Positions 3,001-24,671 of a stretch of 64,000 bases of DNA are shown here, one piece after another. Origin of the DNA: Candidatus Moraniibacteriota bacterium. GTDB lineage: Bacteria > Patescibacteriota > Minisyncoccia > Moranbacterales > UBA1568. The DNA lies in NCBI GenBank assembly GCA_049290235.1, contig JBATNG010000017.1:628-64627 (forward strand). Reading direction: 5' to 3'. The notes below the pieces were generated by a model. That model worked only from the letters and a program-made list of their open reading frames with translations, had not been told where the DNA came from and did not search any database. Every line of letters begins with the position of its first letter. Positions within the stretch are counted from its first letter, which is position 1. The translations under genes and the position numbers were made by a program.

Positions 3001-6000
3001 GCAGCTCAACACCGGCATCGCCAATACTGCTCTCTATGTTGACAATCGTGGCACGGGGAGTGGTCTCCGCATCGATGACGAGTCCGGCGATACGACGCCA
3101 TTCATTATTGACGGTCACGGTAGAGTCGGAATTGGAACGACAACAATTTCGGAGGATTCGTCAACTGAACGATTATTTCAAGTCGGGTCCGAGACGAACC
3201 GTGGTAATAGTGTAACTTATGGTGAGGTTGTTTCTAAAGGTCAAAAAGACCTGACAGCTTTGACTGGAATCAAAGATATTTTCGTATATGATACGACGAG
3301 CGACAGCGATGGTGGTCGTTGGATTGACTGGGCGACAACTGATCAGCTTTCCTGGTATTCTGAGTCGCTCGATGACGGCCCAAGTGATCCATGTGACATA
3401 GCCTCGGATGATCGTTGCTACAAAGCAGCGTTCCCTCGAAAGGCTATCTTGATCGTGACAACATCAGCACTCTATATATTCGATGCGCAGGATAATACGA
3501 TGTGGATGAAGTTTAGTCAGAATGCAGCTGGCTATGCTCTGGGTGTCGATACAAGTAATGACCCGTCGAGCGTCACGGCCCTTAACGGCGTTGTATATGT
3601 TGGAACAAATGGAGCGTCGGCTGGTGGGCTTTATGCCATCGACTTCGTCAATGACCGCATGTGGAATTACGATGATACCGATCGCTCAGGCGCAAATGTC
3701 GGGATTAGCAGCCGCAATGCAGCCGTAACATATGCGAGCGATAACAACACGAACTTTGACCTTGGTGGGAATACGGGATGGAAAACTATTAATGATGTCT
3801 CAGCTGCAGCCATTCAGTGGAGCAATACGGCAATCGCTGCGACCACTGGCCCAGTCAACGGAATTTCTTTTGTCGCTCTGGCGACAGATTCGGGGGTTAA
3901 TTTGATCAACCTCGCCCAGCAAAGGCTTTTTCAGTACAGTCGCATCACGGACGATAATTATGAGTCAGTCGTTATTACCAAAAGTGCGAGATTGTATGCC
4001 TTGGACAGTACACGAGATGAGCTCAACATGTGGAATAATGTCGATTCAGATGTGGCAAGCCAACTCAATGTGGCGGCGGATAAAGCATGGGATGAAGCGA
4101 CCAATCCCGCTCTGACCAAGAATACACCGGTGATCGGGACCGGTAGTCCCGATGCACTTGAGGTAATTGAACGCGCCTCACTGGCTGATGGTGGACTTAC
4201 GGCTGGTACTGCGTCGGATCTTATCTACATTGGGCATGACCAGGGATTGACCGAACTCCATGACCACGCCACTCTCGCCTCTGGCTGGGTCAAGTACTAC
4301 AATACCACTCGTCAGACGGCTATACTGCCAGCCGCGACGCGTCGGGCGCATATGATGGATGATGCTTCCGGGGACGTGACCAATCAGAGCGTCGGAACGG
4401 ATATTATGGTACCCAAAGGATCCCCGACCTACGGGGTAAATGGTGTACGTGGTAAAGCGATGAGTTTCAACGGTACCTCGCAGTATCTCTGCTCTGGAAC
4501 AGGTACTACGTGTGCCAACGATACGTCTGATAACCTCAGTACGGGCAGCTGGACTATCAGTGTCTGGTTTAAACATACGGCAGGTACCGTTACCGGTACA
4601 GATACGCTCTTCGCTCGTTGTCACAATACGACGCCAGCCGCTGCGGCGGGCTGTGTCGCAGCATCTATGGTTTCATCGGGTGTTATGACGGTTAATGTTG
4701 ACTTCGACGCTACGTTTACCATTGGTCTGACTGGTACGACAGTCTTCCATAGTAGTACCCAGACATACAATGACGGTCAGTGGCATTTCCTTATGGTGAC
4801 TCGTGCTGCAACTACGGGTGCTATAAATACGATGATCGATGGTAAGCCGATTGGTCAAACTAACGGTGTTAACACAACTCTCGATGCCTCGCAGATCCTT
4901 TCCATCGGCGCTGACTGTAGCGTCGGGGCAGCTTGTGCCACGGGTGCTAACTTCTGGGATGGGTCAATTGATGACTTTGTATTGAATGCAAACGGTAGTA
5001 CCGGTACGACAGATAACATCGCCGTTGCTGCCTTGCGTCGCGTGTACAATGATGCTCGGCCACTCGTCAATAAAAGAGTGGTAGCCGTAACCAATGCCAC
5101 AAGCGCCACAACAACAACCATAACAGATACAGGTGAGACATGGATTCCTAATGAATTCGCTGGGCAGGTGATGGCGATTACATCCGATACTGGTGCGGGT
5201 CAAACGCGTCGGGTCGTTTCTAATACGACAGATACGCTTACCGTGTCTCCAGCATTCTCAACTACCCCGGATACAACTTCAGACTTCGAAGTAGATCCTG
5301 AGGCGGTCTATGGGGCTTCAAATATTGTCACTTCTATTGGTATTACGGCTGAGTCTCCTCTAGGAGAGGCTCGACAAATGTGTATTGGAACCAATAGCAC
5401 CTCGGATACCGGTGGTGTTACTTGCTACAATCACCAAGCTGGGCCAAACCTAATCGCCGATGTTTTTCATAGCGATTCAGAACAAATGGATGATAGTAGT
5501 ACAGAATGGACTGGTACTGATTATGATGATATTCGCTCGATTGATCTTTCGGGTCGGGCGCTTGTTATGGGATCAGAGGCTCATTTCTGGACCGAAACGG
5601 AAGATGTTCGTCTTGGGCAGGGTTTGGATTATCTCGCGAATCAGCTCTTCAACATCCGACAGGAGTTGATAAATGATGCCGTTACCGCTCAGGGTAGTAT
5701 CGGTGTGGAAGTTGGATTTACTGGTGGGGCGGACTTGGCGGAGCGCTACTACTCGAATGAGCCACTTCAAGCGGGGGAAGTAGTGTCTATTGACAAGAGT
5801 CTTTCGGCCGGAGTGAAGAAAACGGCCAGTCGCTATCAGCGCGATACACTCGGTATCGTCTCGACCGAACCAGGGCTCATCCTCGGGGCCGAAGCAGAGA
5901 ACGGCTACCCAATCGCCCTTGTCGGTCGAGTACCGGTCAAAGTCACCAATGAGAATGGTCCCATCTATGCTGGCGATCGAGTGACGGCAGCGAGCCGTCC

Positions 6001-14910: not shown

Positions 14911-14985
<75 letters not shown>

Positions 14986-15168: not shown

Positions 15169-16326
15169 ATGAATAATCTCAACCCGTATTCAGCTCTATT
15201 CGATGGCGGCAAGAAACGGATCAGATACAACGGAAATAGCGTATTCCAGCCCATTGAGGACGTCAAAGAATCCGATTTCAGCGAAGGGATCACGACAGGA
15301 AGGATCGCGAAGATTTTTCAGGATCCGGAATATTTTTATCACCTTCACAAGGTAGACAATGGGATATTCTTCGGAGCGGTGGAATACTTCCGATCGATCG
15401 ATGCCGAGTGGTGCAATCTTCCCCTCACGACACTCATGATTTCATCTCCGGGAGAAGTGTACGCCGGAAAAACGCTGGATTACACGACCGATACGCTCCC
15501 GGTTGATATATCCTGGTTTGACAATAAGCGGAACGTCTTTCTTTCGGAAAGTTCACAATTCTATCTCGAGCTGAGGCTCCTGACGCAGAATATCGGTAAG
15601 GTCTTTTCCATATATAATTCGTTCAGAAAAGAAAAGGCGGACTTTTGTCATCTTTCGGAGTTCCAGCACATCGAATTCGAGGGGAAGGTTTCTTTTGACC
15701 AGAATATTGATATCTTTCTCGGTTTGATGCGTCACATCACGAAGTATCTTATAGACAATGAGAGAGAAAGCCTGGAGTACTTCATCGGGGAGGAAAAGCT
15801 GAAGGAGCTTGCCGATGCCTTTTCAGAGGGAAATATCGTTACGATTACCTTCAAGGAGGCGCTTGAAGCTCTCCATAAGGAGACCGGGGATGATATGTAC
15901 AAGGAATTCAGCCTGAAAAACTTCGGTGCATGGGAAGAAATAAGACTTACGGAGATATTCGGCAAGCACGTCATTGTGACGAAATTCCCGCTTTTGCAGA
16001 TTCCTTTCTATCACAACGAACTTGAGGAGAATGAGGACGGGGTTCCGCTCGCCGAGAATGCCGATTTCATCCTCTGTGGTTATCGGGAAACCGTCGGAAG
16101 CGGAACGAGAATTTCAAATTCGGAAGCCTTAAAGGAGAAAGCGAAGACTTTCAATCTTCCTATGTCGGATTACGATCCGTATATTCAGACCCGTCTGAGG
16201 GAAGGGTATCAAAAGACTTCCGGTTTCGGTCTCGGATGGCAGCGGTATGTGCAATGGGTATTACAGTTGCCATATATATGGGAAGCGACACATATACCGC
16301 GAGGACATCATCTCCCTAAGCCGTAA
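15169..16326 (+). CDS. AsnA-type asparagine synthetase / class II aaRS-like catalytic core without an anticodon-binding domain
   Basis: Motif-2-like FRKEKADFCHLSEFQHIEFEG, motif-3-like GSGTRI...GFGLGWQRYVQWVLQLPYIWE. The C-terminus resembles AsnA ([22 protein letters not shown]). No N-terminal OB-fold. Confidence 0.6.
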   Translation: MNNLNPYSALFDGGKKRIRYNGNSVFQPIEDVKESDFSEGITTGRIAKIFQDPEYFYHLHKVDNGIFFGAVEYFRSIDAEWCNLPLTTLMISSPGEVYAGKTLDYTTDTLPVDISWFDNKRNVFLSESSQFYLELRLLTQNIGKVFSIYNSFRKEKADFCHLSEFQHIEFEGKVSFDQNIDIFLGLMRHITKYLIDNERESLEYFIGEEKLKELADAFSEGNIVTITFKEALEALHKETGDDMYKEFSLKNFGAWEEIRLTEIFGKHVIVTKFPLLQIPFYHNELEENEDGVPLAENADFILCGYRETVGSGTRISNSEALKEKAKTFNLPMSDYDPYIQTRLREGYQKTSGFGLGWQRYVQWVLQLPYIWEATHIPRGHHLPKP

Positions 16327-16339
16327 AATCAATAAATAT

Positions 16340-17182
16340 ATGGATCAGAAGACCTTCGATAATTTTTTTCAGCCATACGCAAAAAATGTCGACAAAGCCG
16401 ACGATGTGAGCGCCTTTTGGCGACTCTCTGATGCATTGATCATGGAGATTATCAAGGAAAGTATCGGAAAGCATTGTTCCGAGCAATCAGCTGTATGTGA
16501 TGCGGGGGGTGGGACTGGACGGTGGGTGGTGAAGATGAGCATAGAGATTCCCGGAAAATTCATGGTCTACGATCGCTCGGTCGATATGCTCGCAAAAGCG
16601 AAAGAAAATATTGAAAAAGCCGGCCTTTCCGATAAGGTAACGCTCGTTCAGGGAGACTTGACCGATATGAAGAGTATTGAAAGCGAGTCGATCGATCATA
16701 TCGTGAGTATTTACAGCCCGATAAGCTTCATTTCCGAGAACGGAAAGGCAGCTTCGGAAATGTATCGTGTTCTCAAAAAAGGAGGGAGAATTCTTCTTAT
16801 GGGACACAGTTACTATAATGCGCTTGCGTCGAAAGTGAACAATTATCGGGCCGATTCCGAAGAGCTCGCGCGGCTCTCGGAAGAATATCGGGTGAAGTGG
16901 GCACCATATGTCCCTGAGCTGGTGACTTTTTCGAAGGAGAGTATGGAGTCTCTCTTGAAAACGGCTGGCTTCCGAATTGAGAAAACATACGGCGTTCCGG
17001 TGTTCGTTCAGCCCGGTCCGGAAGATTTTGATCCGGAGAACGAGAAGGTGAGCGCGGTGTCAACCTATCTGGAGAATCCGGACGTATTCAAGCAGATATT
17101 CGATTTGGAAATGGAACACAACAGCAGGGATACAGTTGCCAATCGGGGGATGAACATATTCACTCTAGCCACAAAGATATGA
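16340..17182 (+). CDS. class I SAM-dependent methyltransferase
   Basis: Motif I VCDAGGGTGRW, motif post-I VYDRSVDML, LVQGDLTDM. ATG at 16340 lies just after the upstream stop at 16324-16326. Confidence 0.7.
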   Translation: MDQKTFDNFFQPYAKNVDKADDVSAFWRLSDALIMEIIKESIGKHCSEQSAVCDAGGGTGRWVVKMSIEIPGKFMVYDRSVDMLAKAKENIEKAGLSDKVTLVQGDLTDMKSIESESIDHIVSIYSPISFISENGKAASEMYRVLKKGGRILLMGHSYYNALASKVNNYRADSEELARLSEEYRVKWAPYVPELVTFSKESMESLLKTAGFRIEKTYGVPVFVQPGPEDFDPENEKVSAVSTYLENPDVFKQIFDLEMEHNSRDTVANRGMNIFTLATKI

Positions 17183-18204
17183 AAGAGCTTATAAACCCGA
17201 AGCAACTTCAGAAGGGAGACCTCATTTCTATCGTTTCTCCATCCGCCGGACTAGGAGAACTTTTCCCTCATCGGGTAAAAGATGGTATTCGGGCTTTGGA
17301 AAGGATGAGTTTTTGTGTCAAGGTGGAGAAAAACGCGCTTGGTCGGAAGGGGTGGGTGTCCGGAACGGTTGAAGAGCGAATCGAGGATTTGCATTCAGCT
17401 TTTTCCAATCCCGAAGTGAAATGTGTCATGGCATCTATCGGCGGCGATCATAGCAACCAGCTTCTCAAGCATATCGATTACGATCTCATACGGAACAATC
17501 CGAAGATATTTATCGGTTACTCCGATATTTCCGTGCTTCATTACGCACTGCAGTCCAAGGCTGGACTCCGAACATTTTATGGACCGTGTCTCATATCGGA
17601 ATTCGGGGAATATCCGGATGTTCTTGATTATACGAAAGACTCGTTCATGAAAACTCTCGTCGATGGGTCGTTTGGAGAGATTCGCGCATCGGAAGAATGG
17701 ACTGATGATTTTTTGGACTGGTTCAATCAAGAGAACCACACAAAGAAAAGGACGCTGTATCCATCGGGCGGTTATGAATGGTGGAAAGAAGGCCGCGCGG
17801 AGGGGCGGATTCTCGGGGGATGCGTTCCATCGATCAATCACACATTGGGGACCGAGTATTGGATTGACCCTCGAGGAGCTTTGTTTTTCATTGATATCCC
17901 GGAAGGGGGGCCGGGAGAACCGATGGACATGGCCGCACTGGATTCGTTTTTTGCTGATTTGGATAACGCGAAGACGTTTGAGAATATCTCCGGTCTTATT
18001 ATCGGCAGACCGTACAGGTTTTCGGAAGAATTGCACTCCGAACTGAAGGGACTCGTCTTGAAATATGCCGGTTCATATGGTTATCCTATCCTCTATAATG
18101 CAAATATAGGGCACTGCGCGCCGAGTATCACGCTTCCGTTCGGAGCGCTTGCAGAGGCCGACTCTTCGCGGAATCTTTTTCGGATTGCTGAATCGTGGGT
18201 TTGA
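17179..18204 (+). CDS. LD-carboxypeptidase, peptidase family S66 (LdcA / microcin C7 immunity MccF family)
   Basis: Resembles S66 (LdcA/MccF) family; no specific catalytic motif could be pinned down by eye. Confidence 0.65.
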   Translation: MKELINPKQLQKGDLISIVSPSAGLGELFPHRVKDGIRALERMSFCVKVEKNALGRKGWVSGTVEERIEDLHSAFSNPEVKCVMASIGGDHSNQLLKHIDYDLIRNNPKIFIGYSDISVLHYALQSKAGLRTFYGPCLISEFGEYPDVLDYTKDSFMKTLVDGSFGEIRASEEWTDDFLDWFNQENHTKKRTLYPSGGYEWWKEGRAEGRILGGCVPSINHTLGTEYWIDPRGALFFIDIPEGGPGEPMDMAALDSFFADLDNAKTFENISGLIIGRPYRFSEELHSELKGLVLKYAGSYGYPILYNANIGHCAPSITLPFGALAEADSSRNLFRIAESWV

Positions 18205-18230
18205 TAACGTGGAATAGTGTAAAAAAATTA

Positions 18231-18266
18231 CCCGCCGTCAGATACTCGTGACGGCGGGCGTTTTTT
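18231..18266. terminator. bidirectional rho-independent terminator between convergent genes
   Basis: cccgccgtca-gatactcg-tgacggcggg flanked by aaaaaaa (18221-18227) and tttttt (18261-18266). Confidence 0.65.
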
Positions 18267-19515
18267 ATGCGAAAGGAAACGGAATGACATCGCGAACATT
18301 CTGTTTTCCTCGAGGGAGAAGGAGCATTGCGAGACGTGTCACACCGAGACCAAACCCGGAAATCGGCGGTATGCCGATTCTAAGAAGGTCCAGATACCCA
18401 GTATTTATGGGGACTTCAGATTCTTCGTGCTGCTCTTGAAGTCGCTGTCGCATAGCGCCCTCATCGTTCTCGTCTACCGACATAGTAGCGATATGCATCC
18501 CTTTAGCGACAAGTACGGCTTGGTTTGCGCGATCGTCCATGACCCTACAGAATGGATTGAATCCAGTCGGCATATCCATTATGAAGGTTGGATTGTCGAA
18601 CCGCGGGGCTATGATTTTCGTGAGCGCCTTGTATATGCTGGTGAATCCAGGCATATCTTTTGAGAAGAGATCTGGGCGCAGGCTGATCAATTCCTCGATT
18701 GAACAGCATTCTCGGCCGAAGGCCGAGGCGAGTGCCTCATTGAAGGTGGTTCGTTTCGGGGAGGCAGAAAACGCGTCACCCAATGGTTCGACTCCGACAC
18801 TACTCCTACTCGCCGCGGCGAGTTCATTGAGGATTTCGGTAATGACGTCCAGTGAGTCGTCGAGCGAGTCGCTGACCCTGTACGCTTCCAGGATGCCGAA
18901 CTCAGGATAGTGCGTTGCGTTGATGCCTTCGTTTCGGAACGAGTGAGTCATTTCATACACCCGTTCAAACCCTCCGGCAATGAGCTTTTTGAGTTTTATC
19001 TCCGATGTCATCGAGAGATGGTACTCACGGCCGTTTGCATTGCATTTTGTCGAGAAGGAATTCGCGAGACCGGCATCGAAACTATCCTGCAGGACCCCGG
19101 TATCGAATTCAAGATATCCGTTGTTCTGAAGAACTGTCCGGACGCGTCGATTCATATCGGCGATGACTTTGAAGAGGCCGAAAGAATCCTGGTTTCCAAT
19201 GAGACCGATGACGCGATTATCGTATTCCGTCCGACTGTTCACTCCGTTGTATTTGTCGGGCAGCTCGATGCGGCATATCGACACGATCTTGGCAGAATAT
19301 ACGGCTATAGACGGTGTCCCTGTGCCGCTTGTCGTACGTGTGCCTTCGATGGATATGATCGATCCCGCAGGGAGATTGGCGATTTCCCTGTAGTTTCCAA
19401 TTATTTTCTTTGTGAGAATGAACTGGGTATCCTGCTCCTGAAAGCGAACTTTTAGAAAACAGATGCCACCCATATTTCGTTTTGCGAGGATTCTCGCGTA
19501 TCCGGTGACGTCCAT
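18265..19515 (-). CDS. class IIb aminoacyl-tRNA synthetase paralogue, LysRS-like (compact, 416 aa)
   Basis: N-terminal OB-fold (GYARILAKRNMGGICFLKVRFQ...FILTK), motif 2 FRNEGINATHYPEFGILEAY, motif 3 GFGLGVTRLAMLLL. Confidence 0.7.
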   Translation of the reverse strand: MDVTGYARILAKRNMGGICFLKVRFQEQDTQFILTKKIIGNYREIANLPAGSIISIEGTRTTSGTGTPSIAVYSAKIVSICRIELPDKYNGVNSRTEYDNRVIGLIGNQDSFGLFKVIADMNRRVRTVLQNNGYLEFDTGVLQDSFDAGLANSFSTKCNANGREYHLSMTSEIKLKKLIAGGFERVYEMTHSFRNEGINATHYPEFGILEAYRVSDSLDDSLDVITEILNELAAASRSSVGVEPLGDAFSASPKRTTFNEALASAFGRECCSIEELISLRPDLFSKDMPGFTSIYKALTKIIAPRFDNPTFIMDMPTGFNPFCRVMDDRANQAVLVAKGMHIATMSVDENDEGAMRQRLQEQHEESEVPINTGYLDLLRIGIPPISGFGLGVTRLAMLLLPRGKQNVRDVIPFPFA

Positions 19516-19659
19516 GATGAAATTCTCCTCGGTTGGTTGTTAAAGTTCAACGAGGAAGTATATGTTTAAAATGATCCTTTGTCAACGGCATCTCATTGAC
19601 ACGAGGTTCTGTTTCTGATACGGATTAGATAGGTAGAAATTCTGTCCGAGGAGGATGAG

Positions 19660-20562
19660 ATGAAAATTATTCGGCAAAGTTCTTTTACATATCCGATTGG
19701 CCTAAGAGAGAAATGGCGAGACGAAGTCTTCCAGCCATTAGTTGATCACAAGTTCAGGTTGTTGCTTTCCGACGGGAATACCATCGAAGCGGGAGTATTT
19801 GAGCTTTTGGTGGACGAAACGAAAGAAATCCACGCATGCATTTCAACGCAGGCGGGATGTAAATTCGGGTGTGCCATGTGCACCTCCGGCAGGGAGGGCT
19901 TTTCAAGGAACCTCACAAAGGGAGAAATTCTTTGCCAGATACGACTCCTTTCTGGCGCGGCAGGAATCAGAATGTTCGACCATATCGTTTTTATGGGCAT
20001 AGGTGAGCCGCTTGATAATTACGACAACTTTGTCGGAAGCGTTACGGATTTGGTGAATAGCGATGCTTCTTATGCTGGTCGGCTTTCATTCGCGACCGTC
20101 GGGCTCCCTCAGAAGCTACTCCGATTGTCACGGGAACCGATCCCAGCATTCCGAATGCTTTGGATATCGCTCCATGCGCCAACGGATGAAAAGCGCGCAC
20201 AGATCATGCCGGTTGATAAAGCGTTCAGCATTCTTGAAATACTCGGAGCCGCAAAAGAATTCGCCAACCGTGTATCAACGGAAGTATGGATTAACTACAT
20301 GCTTTTCCAAGGATTCAACGACGGTGTCGATGATGCGAAATCGTTCGCGGGTCTCCTGACTGGAACGGAGAGTACTTTCTCCGTGATGATTACTGAGCCC
20401 AATAACGATCTTGCGCAGTATCGGGGAGCTGATGTTTCGGACTTGAAAAGGTTTGAGGGCTATCTCCGATCTGCAGGAGTAAAAAATCGGATCGCTCGAT
20501 TTATTGCGGCGGGGAAACAAGTGAACGCCGGTTGTGGAGAATTCGTCTTCACCCGCATGTAG
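19660..20562 (+). CDS. RlmN/Cfr-family radical SAM methyltransferase homologue, N-terminally truncated relative to RlmN/Cfr
   Basis: CxxxCxxC cluster ACISTQAGCKFGCAMCTSG. MGIGEPLDN. The C-terminal conserved Cys sits in GCGEF. Colinear with Cfr/RlmN from the radical-SAM core to the C-terminus. Confidence 0.7.
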   Translation: MKIIRQSSFTYPIGLREKWRDEVFQPLVDHKFRLLLSDGNTIEAGVFELLVDETKEIHACISTQAGCKFGCAMCTSGREGFSRNLTKGEILCQIRLLSGAAGIRMFDHIVFMGIGEPLDNYDNFVGSVTDLVNSDASYAGRLSFATVGLPQKLLRLSREPIPAFRMLWISLHAPTDEKRAQIMPVDKAFSILEILGAAKEFANRVSTEVWINYMLFQGFNDGVDDAKSFAGLLTGTESTFSVMITEPNNDLAQYRGADVSDLKRFEGYLRSAGVKNRIARFIAAGKQVNAGCGEFVFTRM

Positions 20563-20579
20563 TGTGATTTTCCGTGTTT

Positions 20580-20611
20580 GCCCCAAGGGTTTCCCTTGGG
20601 GCATTTTTTTC
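20580..20611 (+). terminator. rho-independent terminator
   Basis: gccccaaggg-ttt-cccttggggc followed by attttttt. Confidence 0.7.
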
Positions 20612-20686
20612 TTAACTCCCTTCGCAGGATCTGAAATGTAAGCTAGGATGGAGACCAACCGGAAGCGGTATTTCCGTGCTTTTTGA

Positions 20687-20714
20687 GGTGGTTCGAATCC
20701 TGCCGCCGGAGCAA
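20687..20714 (+). repeat. partial tRNA-Asn 3' end (T-arm plus acceptor 3' strand); att-like direct repeat
   Basis: ggtggttcgaatcctgccgccggagcaa versus the tRNA 3' end aggttcgaatcctgtcgccggagcca. Followed by a hairpin caaaaacaa..ttgtttttg plus T-run (20716-20760). Confidence 0.6.
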
Positions 20715-20761
20715 CAAGCAAAAACAATCCTCCTATGAGGGTTGTTTTTGTTTATTTCGGT

Positions 20762-20810
20762 GGCAGGAGTCGAAGTTTATGCCCTTTAGAGTAAATCCTG
20801 CCGCCAGAGC
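20762..20810 (+). repeat. second partial tRNA-Asn 3' fragment carrying a roughly 30-nt insertion in the T-loop position; homologous to the fragment at 24741-24836
   Basis: ggcagga-gtcgaagtttatgccctttagagtaa-atcctgcc-gccagagc. Shares aagtttatgccctttagRgtaaatcctgYcgccRgagc and the downstream caagccttgtt with the 24.8-kb copy. Confidence 0.55.
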
Positions 20811-20873
20811 TAAGAAAACAATGCCTAATCAAGCCTTGTTTTTTGTTACCCTCGAGAGGATTTGAACTGGCCC

Positions 20874-20902
20874 TTGCATTTATTTACAATAGAGTGTATA
20901 AT
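20874..20902 (+). promoter_or_regulatory. sigma-70-type promoter of the abiE operon (TTGCAT, 17 nt, TATAAT) overlapping a direct-repeat operator candidate
   Basis: ttgcat 20874-20879, tataat 20897-20902. Direct repeats caatagagtgtataat (20887-20902) and caatagagtataagt (20932-20946). AbiEi antitoxins are known to autoregulate through repeats in their promoter. Confidence 0.5.
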
Positions 20903-21003
20903 TTAGTTCAAAGGTACTCATATTTGGGTACCAATAGAGTATAAGTAATCAGTTTACCTATGGTGAGTGTAGTCGAACCAGCCGTAGTGAGCAGAGTCGA
21001 ACT

Positions 21004-21588
21004 ATGAAAAAAGACTATCTTTTAGACCTCATGCGATCCAAGAAGACGGTTTTTACGTTTAAGGACCTGGTTTTGCTTTGGGGAGAGTCTGATGTGAGTT
21101 TTGTGAAGAAGAAGATTCATCGCTATGTGAAGGCCGGTAAAATGAACGCTGTACGCAGGGGTATTTATTCTAAGGACAAGAATTATGATAAATATGAGCT
21201 GGCTACAAAAGTATATACTCCCTCATATGTCAGCATGGAAACAGCTTTAGGTGCCGCCGGAATTACGTTCCAGTTGTACGGTCAGATTTTTGTTGCTTCC
21301 TATACCACCAAAGAAATTGAGTGCGACGGACAGAGGTATTCTTATAAAAAAATAAAGGGTACCATTCTCACTAATCAGGTTGGCATAGAATCAAGAGAAA
21401 ATTATAGTATTGCTTCGCCTGAGAGAGCATTTTTGGATGTCATTTACCTCAACCAGGACTATCATTTTGACAACCTCTCGGCTTTACATTGGGAAAAGGT
21501 ATATGACATTTTACCTATATATGACGGTAATAAACGTATGGCCAGAATGGTGAAAATGTACTATGAAGCATGTAAGAAAGACTTTTAA
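21004..21588 (+). CDS. AbiEi-family type IV toxin-antitoxin antitoxin / transcriptional regulator
   Basis: Size and position immediately upstream of the AbiEii-like nucleotidyltransferase. N-terminal wHTH-like region FTFKDLVLLWGESDVSFVKKKIHRYVKAGKMNAVRRGIY. Confidence 0.5.
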   Translation: MKKDYLLDLMRSKKTVFTFKDLVLLWGESDVSFVKKKIHRYVKAGKMNAVRRGIYSKDKNYDKYELATKVYTPSYVSMETALGAAGITFQLYGQIFVASYTTKEIECDGQRYSYKKIKGTILTNQVGIESRENYSIASPERAFLDVIYLNQDYHFDNLSALHWEKVYDILPIYDGNKRMARMVKMYYEACKKDF

Positions 21589-21599
21589 AAAAATATCAT

Positions 21600-22310
21600 A
21601 TGGCTCTGGATACCGCAAAGCATAAAAATATCCTGGTAAAAATCCTGAAGGATATTTACACTGACGTCACTATCAGTCCAGCGCTGGGATTCAAAGGCGG
21701 AACAGCGGCTACTTTTTTCTATGGACTTGATCGCTTCTCGGTGGATTTGGATTTTGATTTGCTTGATGCAGAAAAGGAAATTCTTGTGTTTGAGCGAGTC
21801 AAAGTCATACTGGAGAAGTATGGCACTCTCAAAGAAGCGCGGACAAAAAGATTCAATCTTCTCTACGTGCTCTCATATAATGACAAGGACATCAATGCTC
21901 AAAACGTGAAAGTGGAAATAAATCGTCGGGAGTATGGCTCGCGATATACGGTGGAGTCATTCCTGGGTATTTCTATGCAGGTCATGGTCAAAGAAGATAT
22001 GGTGGCGCATAAGCTCTGTGCTATGCTCGAACGCATCGGTAAAACCAATCGTGATATTTTTGATGTGCAGTTTTTTCTTGCTCACGACTGGCCGGTTAAT
22101 AGGAAAATTATCGAGGATCGTATGGGCGTTTCGTATGCAGATTTTTTGAAAAAGTGTATCGATGCGATGGAAAAGTTCAATGACAACAACATTCTTTCCG
22201 GTATGGGCGAGTTACTCACCGAAAAACAGAAAGCCTGGGCCAAGGCCAAGTTGAAGCCAGAAGCATTGTTTTTACTCAGGTTGGCTTTGGAGAAGGAGAC
22301 GTATCCATAA
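21600..22310 (+). CDS. AbiEii/AbiGii-family nucleotidyltransferase toxin (DUF1814-like)
   Basis: NTase motif GFKGGTAATFFYGLDRFSVDLDFDL (hG[GS] ... DhDh). Confidence 0.6.
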   Translation: MALDTAKHKNILVKILKDIYTDVTISPALGFKGGTAATFFYGLDRFSVDLDFDLLDAEKEILVFERVKVILEKYGTLKEARTKRFNLLYVLSYNDKDINAQNVKVEINRREYGSRYTVESFLGISMQVMVKEDMVAHKLCAMLERIGKTNRDIFDVQFFLAHDWPVNRKIIEDRMGVSYADFLKKCIDAMEKFNDNNILSGMGELLTEKQKAWAKAKLKPEALFLLRLALEKETYP

Positions 22311-22517
22311 AGAAATGAAATATGACCAATCGAATCCTTTCAAAACAATTGCCTGGAAGAAAGAAGAACAGTGGATCAGAGCCATGGTTCGATGGTTGTG
22401 AAATCTGTGGAGCTGAAAGGAAAGCACGTGAAGAAGGTCGATCGCTGAAAGCATCGGAGTTGCGAGAGGCCTTCCAGAGAGCGAATAGAGCGAAGAAGTG
22501 ATAGAAAGTGGTCTACT

Positions 22518-24671
22518 ATGTCCGTGCTTACTCGACAACAGCGAGTGGATTTATTTCAATCTTTTTTTCGCGGGAGAGAAGATGTTTTTGCTATCCGCTT
22601 CCAAAAAGTAGGGACAGATATCTCCGGATATACGCCGGTATTTACCGATCGAGGAAAAACAGAATACAAAACAATCACACAGAGCGACATCGAGAACCAT
22701 CTGCTTGGTAACGTGACACTCGGTATCTATCCGCTACTAAAAGCTAATACGTCATATTTCATTGCTGCAGATTTTGATGAGAAAGAGTGGAAACGAGATG
22801 CAAAAGCCTTTTATGATACCTGTAGGAAGCACGGAATAGATGTTGCTTTGGAAGTTTCCCGATCTGGAAATGGGGCTCACATATGGTGTTTTTTCGATAG
22901 GCCCTATCCTGCTTCGAGGTCGAGAAGAATTTTTCTTACCTTGCTTCGTCAAGCGAAGTGTATTGATGATTACTTTCATGATGAGAGTTTTGATCGTTTA
23001 TTCCCGAACCAGGATATGCATTCAGGGAAGGGTCTGGGTAATCTCATCGCATTACCGCTGCAAGGGAAGTCAAGAAAAGAAAATAAAACTGAATTCATTG
23101 ATCCGAAAACATTCCTTCCATTTCCTGACCAGTGGGATTTTTTGTCTGGTCTCAAAAAGATTTCTGTAGAAAAACTGGATGAGTTGTATGAAAATCTCTG
23201 TCAAAAAGGGAATACTTTGAAAGAGCAGGCGACTTTTAGTCAAAATACCCCGATGTGTATCGAGCTTTCAGCTCTGCTGAAGATTCCGAAGCAGCAGGTT
23301 ACACCGGTGCTCATGACGTATTTACGGGAAAAGTTGAATTTTTTCAATAGCGAATATATAGCCAAGTCGAAAATCGGATTTTCGACGCATGGGGTGGAGA
23401 AGTTTTTTAAGACGGTATGCTCCGACGATGATTTTGTATATATTCCTCGCGGATACCTTGAAATGGTAACGGTCTTTCTTCGGGAGCAGGGTATCGACTT
23501 TGAGGTTGTAGACAAATATTTGGTTTTAGAGGATGTTGAGCTGGATATTTCACTTCCTTTGTATCGATATCAGCAAGAAGCAGTAGAGAGTTTCGTGGGA
23601 AAAAACCAGGGGATGCTGATCGCTCCGCCCGGGAGCGGGAAGACTCTTATGGGACTTGCTATCGCTCTTTCCAAAAAGCAGCCGACGCTCATTATTGTAC
23701 ACCGGAAGAATATCCTCGAGCAGTGGGTCGAGAGCATCCATAACTTTCTCGGGATTCAAAAAAAGGAAATCGGAAAATACGGAGGCACAACCAAGAAAAT
23801 CAAACAACCGTTCACAGTTGCCATGATGCAGACACTTGCGAGAGCAAAAGAAAAGGATGAAATACTGAAGCATTTCGGCTGTGTGATAGTGGATGAATGC
23901 CATCATGTGCCAGCCAAGATGTTCCGGAAAGTGATCTCGTGTGTTTCGTCGAAATACCTTTTCGGACTGACGGCGACGCCGAAGCGGAAATACAACGATC
24001 AGAAATTAATTTCTGCTTACCTAGGTGAGACCATCTATGAAGTTTCCGGTGCTTATCGAGAGGAAAGCAGTGCTCTGGTGAATCCGGGCTCAGCGAATAT
24101 TTCCGTTGTTGTTCTGAAAAGTGATTTTCTCATTCCTTATGAATTCGGCGCAAGGGATTTTGCACATATTTTGAAGCTCACCTCTTTCGATACGCGGAGA
24201 AATAAAATGATTGCCGACGTCATACAAAGCGAAGTTTCACAAAAAAGGAAAGTATTGGTGATAGCGGAAAGAAAATAGCACATCGAGTCGCTTCGGTATT
24301 TCTTGAAGAAGAGTGTGGATATACTGGTCATGACCGGGACTCTCTCGGCTCGACAGAAAAAGTATCGGAGCACCAGAATGGGCAATGGGACGTTTCAGGT
24401 CATACTTGCGACAGGGCAGTTCTTTGGAGAAGGGGTGGATGTGGTACATTTCGACTCGCTTTTTATTGTCTCGCCGATTTCTTTCGAAGGAAAGCTGATC
24501 CAGTACATCGGTCGGTTACAGCGAGGCAGCAGAGAGAAGAAAGTGTTCGACATCTGTGATCCCGAGGTGAAAATGCTTGAAAAGATGTTCAAGAAGAGAG
24601 TGACGGTGTATAACAAATTAGCGAAAGCTGGTCAGATAACTTTTACAGAGCAAGCGAAGGACTTGTTATGA
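22518..24671 (+). pseudogene. Prim-Pol (archaeo-eukaryotic primase-like) N-terminal domain fused to SF2 DEAD/DEAH-type helicase; reading frame interrupted by a single in-frame TAG at 24276-24278
   Basis: PrimPol-like LGIYPLLKANTSYFIAADFDEKEW...LEVSRSGNGAHIWCFF. Helicase motif I APPGSGKT, II DECHH, III LTATP. After the TAG, in the same frame: VLVATGQFFGEGVDVVHFDSLFIV..QYIGRLQRGS (motifs V-VI). The ORF track shows this as 22518-24278 and 24303-24671, both in frame 0. Confidence 0.6.

Follow-up and report, generated by a model that had tools for sequence, protein, structure and literature searches.

Two adjacent genes on a contig of Candidatus Moraniibacteriota bacterium (JBATNG010000017.1), within a 64-kb stretch of DNA that we call the window, raise the question of whether they form an AbiE-type toxin–antitoxin system and, if so, through which DNA site the pair regulates itself. 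The original prediction, made from the sequence alone, had assigned them to the AbiEi/AbiEii organisation and had placed their autoregulation in a pair of direct repeats. We conclude that positions 20874–22310 probably constitute a self-contained AbiE-type (COG5340 antitoxin, DUF1814/COG2253 toxin) toxin–antitoxin cassette whose proposed operator is a palindrome situated between those repeats. The cassette has the following features.

20874–20879, + strand: -35-like hexamer TTGCAT, the left edge of the conserved cassette.
20887–20898, + strand: direct-repeat copy 1, CAATAGAGTGTA, covering the spacer of the promoter and the first positions of the -10.
20897–20902, + strand: -10 hexamer TATAAT, 17 nt after the -35, read from the sequence and conserved in 30 loci.
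20913–20932, no strand: palindrome GGTACTCA-tatt-TGGGTACC, proposed as the AbiEi operator and lying 10 nt 3' of the -10.
20932–20943, + strand: direct-repeat copy 2, CAATAGAGTATA, adjoining the palindrome at its right arm.
20957–21003, + strand: leader insertion of two tandem 24-nt units with the core GTGAGnnnAGTCGAAC, a window-specific duplication.
21004–21588, + strand: abiEi-like gene for a 194-aa antitoxin/repressor, in which an N-terminal winged helix (residues ~1-60) precedes a C-terminal domain.
21600–22310, + strand: abiEii-like gene for a 236-aa DUF1814 nucleotidyltransferase toxin, the right edge of the conserved cassette.

The AbiEi-like and AbiEii-like proteins

The listing of open reading frames (ORFs) contains both predicted genes, encoding 194 and 236 amino acids, with the abiEi-like gene preceding the abiEii-like gene on the same strand at a distance of 11 nt. 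Of 50 related loci, 46 retain the pair, with intergenic gaps of between -23 and +88 nt. The downstream protein matches the Pfam AbiEii family (PF08843) with 58.1 bits against a cut-off of 22.5 (E = 1.6e-15), and the PADLOC AbiEii model PDLC02324 from end to end (E = 3.1e-77, 257 bits); all 20 of its PADLOC matches are to AbiEii models. Its nearest solved relative by sequence is the Helicobacter pylori protein 4O8S/4OK0 (E = 3e-13 with a family profile). The aminoglycoside and lincosamide nucleotidyltransferase (NTase) and MNT profiles of Pfam and NCBIfam gave no match, and AbiEii is the only Pfam family matched, which excludes an antibiotic NTase, an identity that had been named beforehand as contradicting the original prediction.

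The motifs from which the toxin was initially recognised, GGTAA and DLDFDL, are both found, the former as GGTAAT. AbiEii proteins are defined by motifs I (hG[GS]), II (DhD and a preceding Arg), III (KLxAxxxR) and IV (+DxxD), each of which is required for toxicity in Streptococcus agalactiae, and mutation of G49, R63, D67, D69, K173, R180 or D192 abolishes the toxicity of S. agalactiae AbiEii (PMC3985639). All four motifs are present here, and each of these toxicity residues has an invariant counterpart (G33/G34, R45, D49, D51, K138, R145 and R151-D152-x-x-D155). The residues G33, G34, R45, S47, D49, D51, K138, A141, R145, R151, D152 and D155 are identical in 44 of 44 relatives. The phosphoacceptor of S. 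agalactiae AbiEii is T65, within R63-x-T65-x-D67-x-D69 (bioRxiv 10.64898/2026.01.19.700257), and the same R-x-[ST]-x-D-x-D pattern reads R45-F-S47-V-D49-L-D51 in the window protein. The active site of the toxin is intact.

The upstream protein matches the PADLOC AbiEi model PDLC02255, a non-curated one, over its full length (E = 2.6e-59, 198 bits). The Pfam family AbiEi_4 is matched by 30 of 48 close and 48 of 97 diverse relatives of this protein (best E = 4e-8), and one NCBI homologue (P0062) carries the annotation AbiEi-family antitoxin. A structural model made by AlphaFold2 with the 97 diverse relatives reached a mean predicted local distance difference test score (pLDDT) of 95.8 and a predicted template modelling (TM) score of 0.90, with an N-terminal winged helix predicted in the order H1-S1-H2-H3-S2-S3; a shallow alignment of relatives that are 75-90% identical gave a pLDDT of 52.5, and that model was discarded. 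When the better model was compared with 350,542 PDB chains using Foldseek, matches with E <= 0.001 were obtained only for S. agalactiae AbiEi (6Y8Q_A and 6Y8Q_D; E = 1e-5, TM 0.55 over the full length) and, in third place, for Rv2827c (1ZEL_A; E = 9.7e-4). The matches ranking below these are NTase-fold proteins, and a likeness to the NTase fold has been reported for the C-terminal domain of AbiEi (PMC7319586). The predicted fold clearly matches the two-domain AbiEi fold. By the order of secondary structure elements, its alpha5-beta4 loop corresponds to residues 85-93, in which G86, F89, Q90 and Y92 are invariant.

We assign the pair to the AbiE family because of the full-length PADLOC matches, the AbiEi_4 matches of the relatives and the AbiEi fold match. 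Together with the above-threshold Pfam match of AbiEii and the intact toxin motifs, these bear out the AbiEi/AbiEii organisation, and the cassette is an intact, ordinary member of the family. The label "type IV" that had been attached to it is out of date, since a reclassification of the AbiE class from type IV to type VII is under way (bioRxiv 10.64898/2026.01.19.700257).

Promoter, palindrome and direct repeats

The promoter had been correctly identified as TTGCAT, a 17-nt spacer and TATAAT. In an upstream alignment of 30 close loci, TTG is conserved at 0.93 and TATAAT at 0.87-1.00 per position; the sequence 5' of the -35 is unrelated between loci and conservation starts exactly at the -35. 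An automated promoter scan omitted this site because its -35 fits the consensus TTGACA at only 3 of 6 positions, and it is the conservation of TTG and TATAAT across the 30 loci that supports a real promoter. A full-length RpoD, pointing to the use of sigma-70-type promoters by the host, is encoded in the window.

The palindrome is the strongest non-coding feature of the region. Across the close loci its consensus is GGTACCCA-N4-TGGGTACC (left arm GGTACYCA), an 8-4-8 arrangement that begins 10 nt after the -10. Its arms are conserved at 0.93-1.00 in the 30 loci, making it the best-conserved upstream element, against a neutral baseline in the same loci of 0.59 at four-fold degenerate sites and 0.67 at third codon positions; in ~25 loci the arm sequence is invariant, with zero compensatory changes. 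Each locus has one palindrome, which always precedes the abiEi start by 43-91 nt, and a search of the window that tolerated three mismatches gave no second copy. With a transcription start near 20909, the palindrome would occupy approximately +4 to +23. Distant relatives lack GGTACCCA and have other inverted repeats at the equivalent position, 0-10 nt 3' of the -10, an example from a distant clade being ACTGGA..TAGGTT-N-AACCTA..TCCAGT with 15-21-nt arms. Five differences that are fixed between the operator clades (K35Q, K36V, K37R, I38L and R40Y) fall in the recognition helix (residues 31-43). Characterised AbiEi proteins and Rv2827c repress their own operons via inverted repeats in their own promoters, the S. 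agalactiae sites being two 23-bp repeats 3 bp apart (PMC7319586). On the basis of this conservation and placement, the palindrome is the likely site of self-regulation and a candidate AbiEi operator. Its architecture is of the same kind as in the characterised AbiEi systems, but shorter and located downstream of the -10.

It had instead been proposed that AbiEi represses the operon through two direct repeats (CAATAGAGTRTA at 20887 and 20932), the first overlapping the -10, and we now regard this as very improbable. The repeats themselves are real, in that CAATAGAGT is found exactly twice in the 64-kb window, at 20887 and 20932, its copies extend to 11 of 12 matching positions, the first of them overlaps the spacer and the -10, and related loci L020 and L018 have copies matching at 9/12 and 8/12 positions, respectively. 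Their autoregulatory role falls away because they are not conserved, do not co-vary and lie near chance expectation. Across 29 related loci, the repeat sites match one another at 6.17/12 positions within a locus and at 6.05/12 between loci (permutation P = 0.28), and in the other loci no exact word longer than 8 nt is common to both regions. First-order Markov resampling of the 89-130-nt region produced an exact repeat of at least 9 nt in 6-9% of trials, and in 4-5% two 12-mers differing at one position or none, which puts the CAATAGAGT repeat near chance (P ~0.04-0.09). Furthermore, a role for direct repeats does not agree with the literature, as the characterised AbiEi proteins bind inverted repeats and not direct ones (PMC7319586), and here a far better conserved palindrome, the conserved element of the region, lies between the two copies.

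The same palindrome could also act mainly as RNA, forming an 8-bp 5' stem-loop by which the abiE mRNA is stabilised or its translation adjusted. Its location just downstream of the presumed transcription start would suit this role, the 8-bp hairpin appears in both the minimum-energy and the centroid structures, and the single arm mismatch in the window is compatible with G.U pairing on the sense strand. Yet a constraint on structure only would tolerate compensatory changes, and there are no compensatory pairs among the ~25 loci with invariant arms, in which neutral sites have diverged to ~0.6. Nor are the arm mismatches over all loci biased towards G.U on the sense strand (10 G.U, 9 A.C and 20 other), and the interval from +4 to +23 is a classic repressor position. 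With the arms invariant, this bias absent and the type of operator varying between clades, a DNA site recognised by a protein is favoured, and a mainly RNA-level function appears improbable, albeit somewhat less so than regulation through the direct repeats. The two roles of the palindrome are not mutually exclusive.

Several points count against an AbiE cassette controlled by the palindrome, in an analysis that is wholly computational. For the profile check that had been proposed, AbiEii passes Pfam, whereas the antitoxin falls short of the curated thresholds: the window protein has no match at E <= 1 to Pfam AbiEi_1-4, and reaches 30 bits against a cut-off of 150, over residues 8-91 only, with NCBIfam TAA_AbiEi (NF047376). 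Sequence searches of the PDB with this protein (as a single sequence or as a 48-member or 97-member profile) found no match; the sole marginal candidate, the CooA winged helix (E = 2.2), was dismissed. Within the palindrome of the window one arm position is mismatched (T20918, a G.U pair in RNA), the arms measure 8 bp as opposed to 23 bp in S. agalactiae, and the element is predicted to fold as a 5' RNA hairpin. Clade-specific changes are not significantly enriched in the recognition helix (5/17 versus 24/177 positions; Fisher P = 0.088). The equation of Ser47 with T65 is one of sequence pattern and not of structural superposition. Finally, the S. agalactiae AbiE system failed to protect E. 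coli from 32 coliphages (bioRxiv 10.64898/2026.01.19.700257).

The leader that follows the palindrome is ~95 nt long in the window and ~47 nt in most relatives. Its 24-nt unit, a tandem duplicate here (repeat D2, 24-nt spacing), is present as a single copy in L002, L003, L004, L007, L017, L018 and L020 and is missing from most loci. The insertion at 20957-21003 is predicted to form a hairpin (z = -3.1), and a permissive Rfam search of 20400-21100 found nothing credible in the leader. The insertion also creates a 15-codon upstream ORF, running from an ATG at 20959 to a TGA that overlaps the abiEi ATG; a function for this ORF was rejected because most loci are without the insertion and those that have it do not preserve the frame.

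Spread and genomic context of the cassette

A genome scan yielded 52 loci encoding relatives at 52-94% identity, nearly all of them in metagenome-assembled genomes (MAGs) of Patescibacteria. In blastn comparisons, the DNA similarity between the window and other loci is confined to ~20871-22303, starting at 20871-20873 and ending at 22297-22303; only for L018 does it reach ~60 nt further upstream, and the sequence right after the abiEii stop is unrelated between loci. Because similarity runs from the -35 to the abiEii stop, we take the unit to be a 1.43-kb promoter-to-stop cassette. It is found in unrelated contexts, almost always in Patescibacteria MAGs, and is common to many Patescibacteria lineages at 77-90% protein identity. 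None of its neighbours in the window (a 59-aa ORF, a helicase fused to an archaeo-eukaryotic primase (AEP) and a radical S-adenosylmethionine (SAM) protein) recurs in the 52 loci. The wider family comprises 1,380 clusters at 50% identity (E <= 0.001) and more than 4,000 metagenome relatives. A tblastn search with AbiEii of 72,556 plasmids and 50,697 phage genomes gave no match, and the antitoxin profile gave a single match in IMG/VR, L053. This locus (58% identity) lies on a contig binned as a giant-virus MAG (GVMAG-M-3300009502-26), for which a binning artefact or a real transfer is possible. At the end of another contig, L024 has a near-copy of the palindrome (AAGGTACCCATATTTGGGGACC; ~1520-1545) about 20 nt 3' of the abiEii stop, which may start a second, truncated cassette.

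The cassette lies in a stretch of low GC content (0.41-0.47 versus 0.52-0.60) that begins after a tRNA-Asn gene at 14911-14985, the only Rfam match in the window. Among the related loci, ten have a tRNA gene on the same strand at most 3 kb upstream, which is tRNA-Asn in three; this linkage is suggestive of the cassette travelling as island cargo. The host encodes DnaG, and the named relatives of this protein are mostly from Moranbacteria or other Patescibacteria MAGs at 54-60% identity; sequences labelled Dojkabacteria (74%) and 'Undibacterium sp.' MAG (73%) are closer, so these labels are only partly consistent. The DnaG relatives, the best of which (94%) is known only from metagenomes, support an uncultivated lineage. 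The description of the locus as part of an island in an apparently uncultivated lineage thus agrees with the low-GC stretch and the Patescibacteria genome.

A number of other features were noted around the cassette and its relatives. In L008, two tRNA-Arg(CCG) genes (2693-2766 and 3116-3192) stand 350 nt apart directly upstream of abiE and look like a tRNA duplication by an integrative element. At 20689-20810 of the window there are two direct copies, 98 nt apart, of AATCCTGCCGCC(G/A)GAGC, which resembles a tRNA 3' end, and an inverted copy of the same type of sequence forms a long hairpin at 20692-20774; ARAGORN and Rfam called no tRNA in these fragments, and the copies may be attachment-site remnants of integration. 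Following the tRNA-Asn gene, the low-GC region 15169-20562 encodes two paralogues of class II aminoacyl-tRNA synthetases (15169-16326 on the + strand and 18265-19515 on the - strand), a SAM methyltransferase, an S66 LD-carboxypeptidase of the MccF family and a radical SAM protein, a gene set that resembles an aminoacyl-nucleotide antibiotic or immunity cluster. Downstream of abiEii, the 59-aa ORF (22322-22501) contains a CxxC motif; searches of Pfam, PADLOC and NCBIfam gave no match for it, and all related loci lack it. It is followed at 22518-24671 by a TOTE-type AEP fused to a superfamily 2 helicase (Pfam AEP-TOTE 248 bits, ResIII and Helicase_C), the frame of which is broken by an in-frame TAG at 24276-24278 (...VLVIAERK*HIESLRYF...). 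This is probably a defence-type gene with a nonsense mutation, and none of the 52 loci shows it linked to abiE.

Proposed mechanism, role and relation to known AbiE systems

In the mechanism we propose, the winged-helix domains of two AbiEi molecules would bind the two half-sites of the palindrome, whose centres are 12 bp apart (+4 to +23), and AbiEi seated there would repress the operon by obstructing RNA polymerase; this mechanism can do without the direct repeats. Free AbiEii would add nucleotides to tRNA 3' ends, or otherwise modify them, and thereby stop translation, in the manner of MenT toxins and S. agalactiae AbiEii. Neutralisation would involve insertion of the conserved alpha5-beta4 loop of AbiEi into the toxin active site, triggering auto-phosphorylation of Ser47 two positions before the D49-x-D51 metal site (PMC11375011; bioRxiv 10.64898/2026.01.19.700257). 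Phage infection and loss of the cassette are possible triggers for release of the toxin.

A phage-defence role for the cassette is an assumption. Resistance to phage is conferred by lactococcal AbiE, RlegTA and SanaTA (bioRxiv 10.64898/2026.01.19.700257; PMC3985639), which speaks against a purely selfish addiction module or a decaying remnant, and decay is excluded because both ORFs are intact and all functional residues invariant. Addiction nevertheless finds support in the occurrence of a bare promoter-to-stop unit in unrelated contexts, in the stabilisation of plasmids by AbiE (PMC3985639) and in the failure of the S. agalactiae system to defend against coliphages, to which the in-frame stop in the adjoining TOTE-type primase-helicase can be added. 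We therefore treat a cassette devoid of any defence role as the less probable case, while giving it appreciable weight. Addiction and defence are inseparable from sequence data, and the former concerns the role of the cassette and fits the same molecular mechanism.

The closest comparison is with S. agalactiae AbiEi-AbiEii (6Y8Q), which is likewise bicistronic with the antitoxin first and has a sigma-70-type promoter whose spacer measures 17 nt, an inverted repeat in the promoter region, the two-domain AbiEi fold (the best Foldseek match), and toxin motifs I-IV with a Ser/Thr two residues before DxD (PMC3985639; bioRxiv 10.64898/2026.01.19.700257). The antitoxins are only 16% identical in the structural alignment to 6Y8Q, with no match at the sequence level even by profile. 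The systems differ further in the gene junction (an 11-nt gap here, a 4-nt overlap in S. agalactiae), the operator (8-bp arms with 4 bp between them, downstream of the -10, as opposed to two 23-bp repeats 3 bp apart), the phosphoacceptor position (Ser versus Thr) and the leader (~95 nt, or ~47 nt in most relatives, versus 26 nt). With Mycobacterium tuberculosis Rv2827c-Rv2826c and MenA/MenT (1ZEL) the cassette has in common the COG5340 antitoxin fold and a DUF1814 NTase toxin, inverted-repeat autoregulation (PMC7319586) and toxin control by auto-phosphorylation (PMC11375011), the last two being only proposed in the case of the window. Rv2827c, however, is 13% identical to the AbiEi-like protein, has 293 aa and binds four 23-bp repeats with negative co-operativity, in contrast to a single short palindrome. 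The DUF1814 protein JHP933 of H. pylori (4O8S/4OK0) shares KG-x-TA...RFS-x-DLDFD and KLCA...RD-x-FD with the AbiEii-like protein, the match covering residues 29-163 only. The two PADLOC models that match end to end, PDLC02255 and PDLC02324 (198 and 257 bits), are known as sequence models only. Through these models, a defence-system database already lists the subfamily as AbiE; we found no description of its operator or regulation in the literature.

The AbiE family, its fold, its toxin chemistry and autoregulation through inverted repeats are all established, and the cassette adds little to knowledge of AbiE as such. What it does offer is a concrete candidate operator, GGTACCCA-N4-TGGGTACC, for a subfamily that counts over 4,000 metagenome relatives, which corrects the site proposed earlier, together with an operator type that shifts between clades at a fixed promoter position. 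More speculatively, the cassette might represent a distinct AbiE subfamily that is largely confined to Patescibacteria, spreads between many candidate phyla as a bare 1.43-kb promoter-operator-abiEi-abiEii unit lacking a mobility gene of its own, often enters tRNA-linked islands, and is self-regulated, unlike the characterised systems, by a single short 8-4-8 roadblock palindrome 3' of the -10 rather than by long 23-bp repeats across the promoter. We put this forward as a tentative proposal that could well prove wrong. In any event, the cassette is one of the few recognisable toxin–antitoxin or defence-type modules common to many Patescibacteria, whose interactions with phages are hard to study. 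If the proposal of a distinct mobile subfamily is true, the unit would be among the most widely shared toxin–antitoxin or defence units of these reduced-genome bacteria and would provide a handle on the almost unknown phage biology of Patescibacteria.

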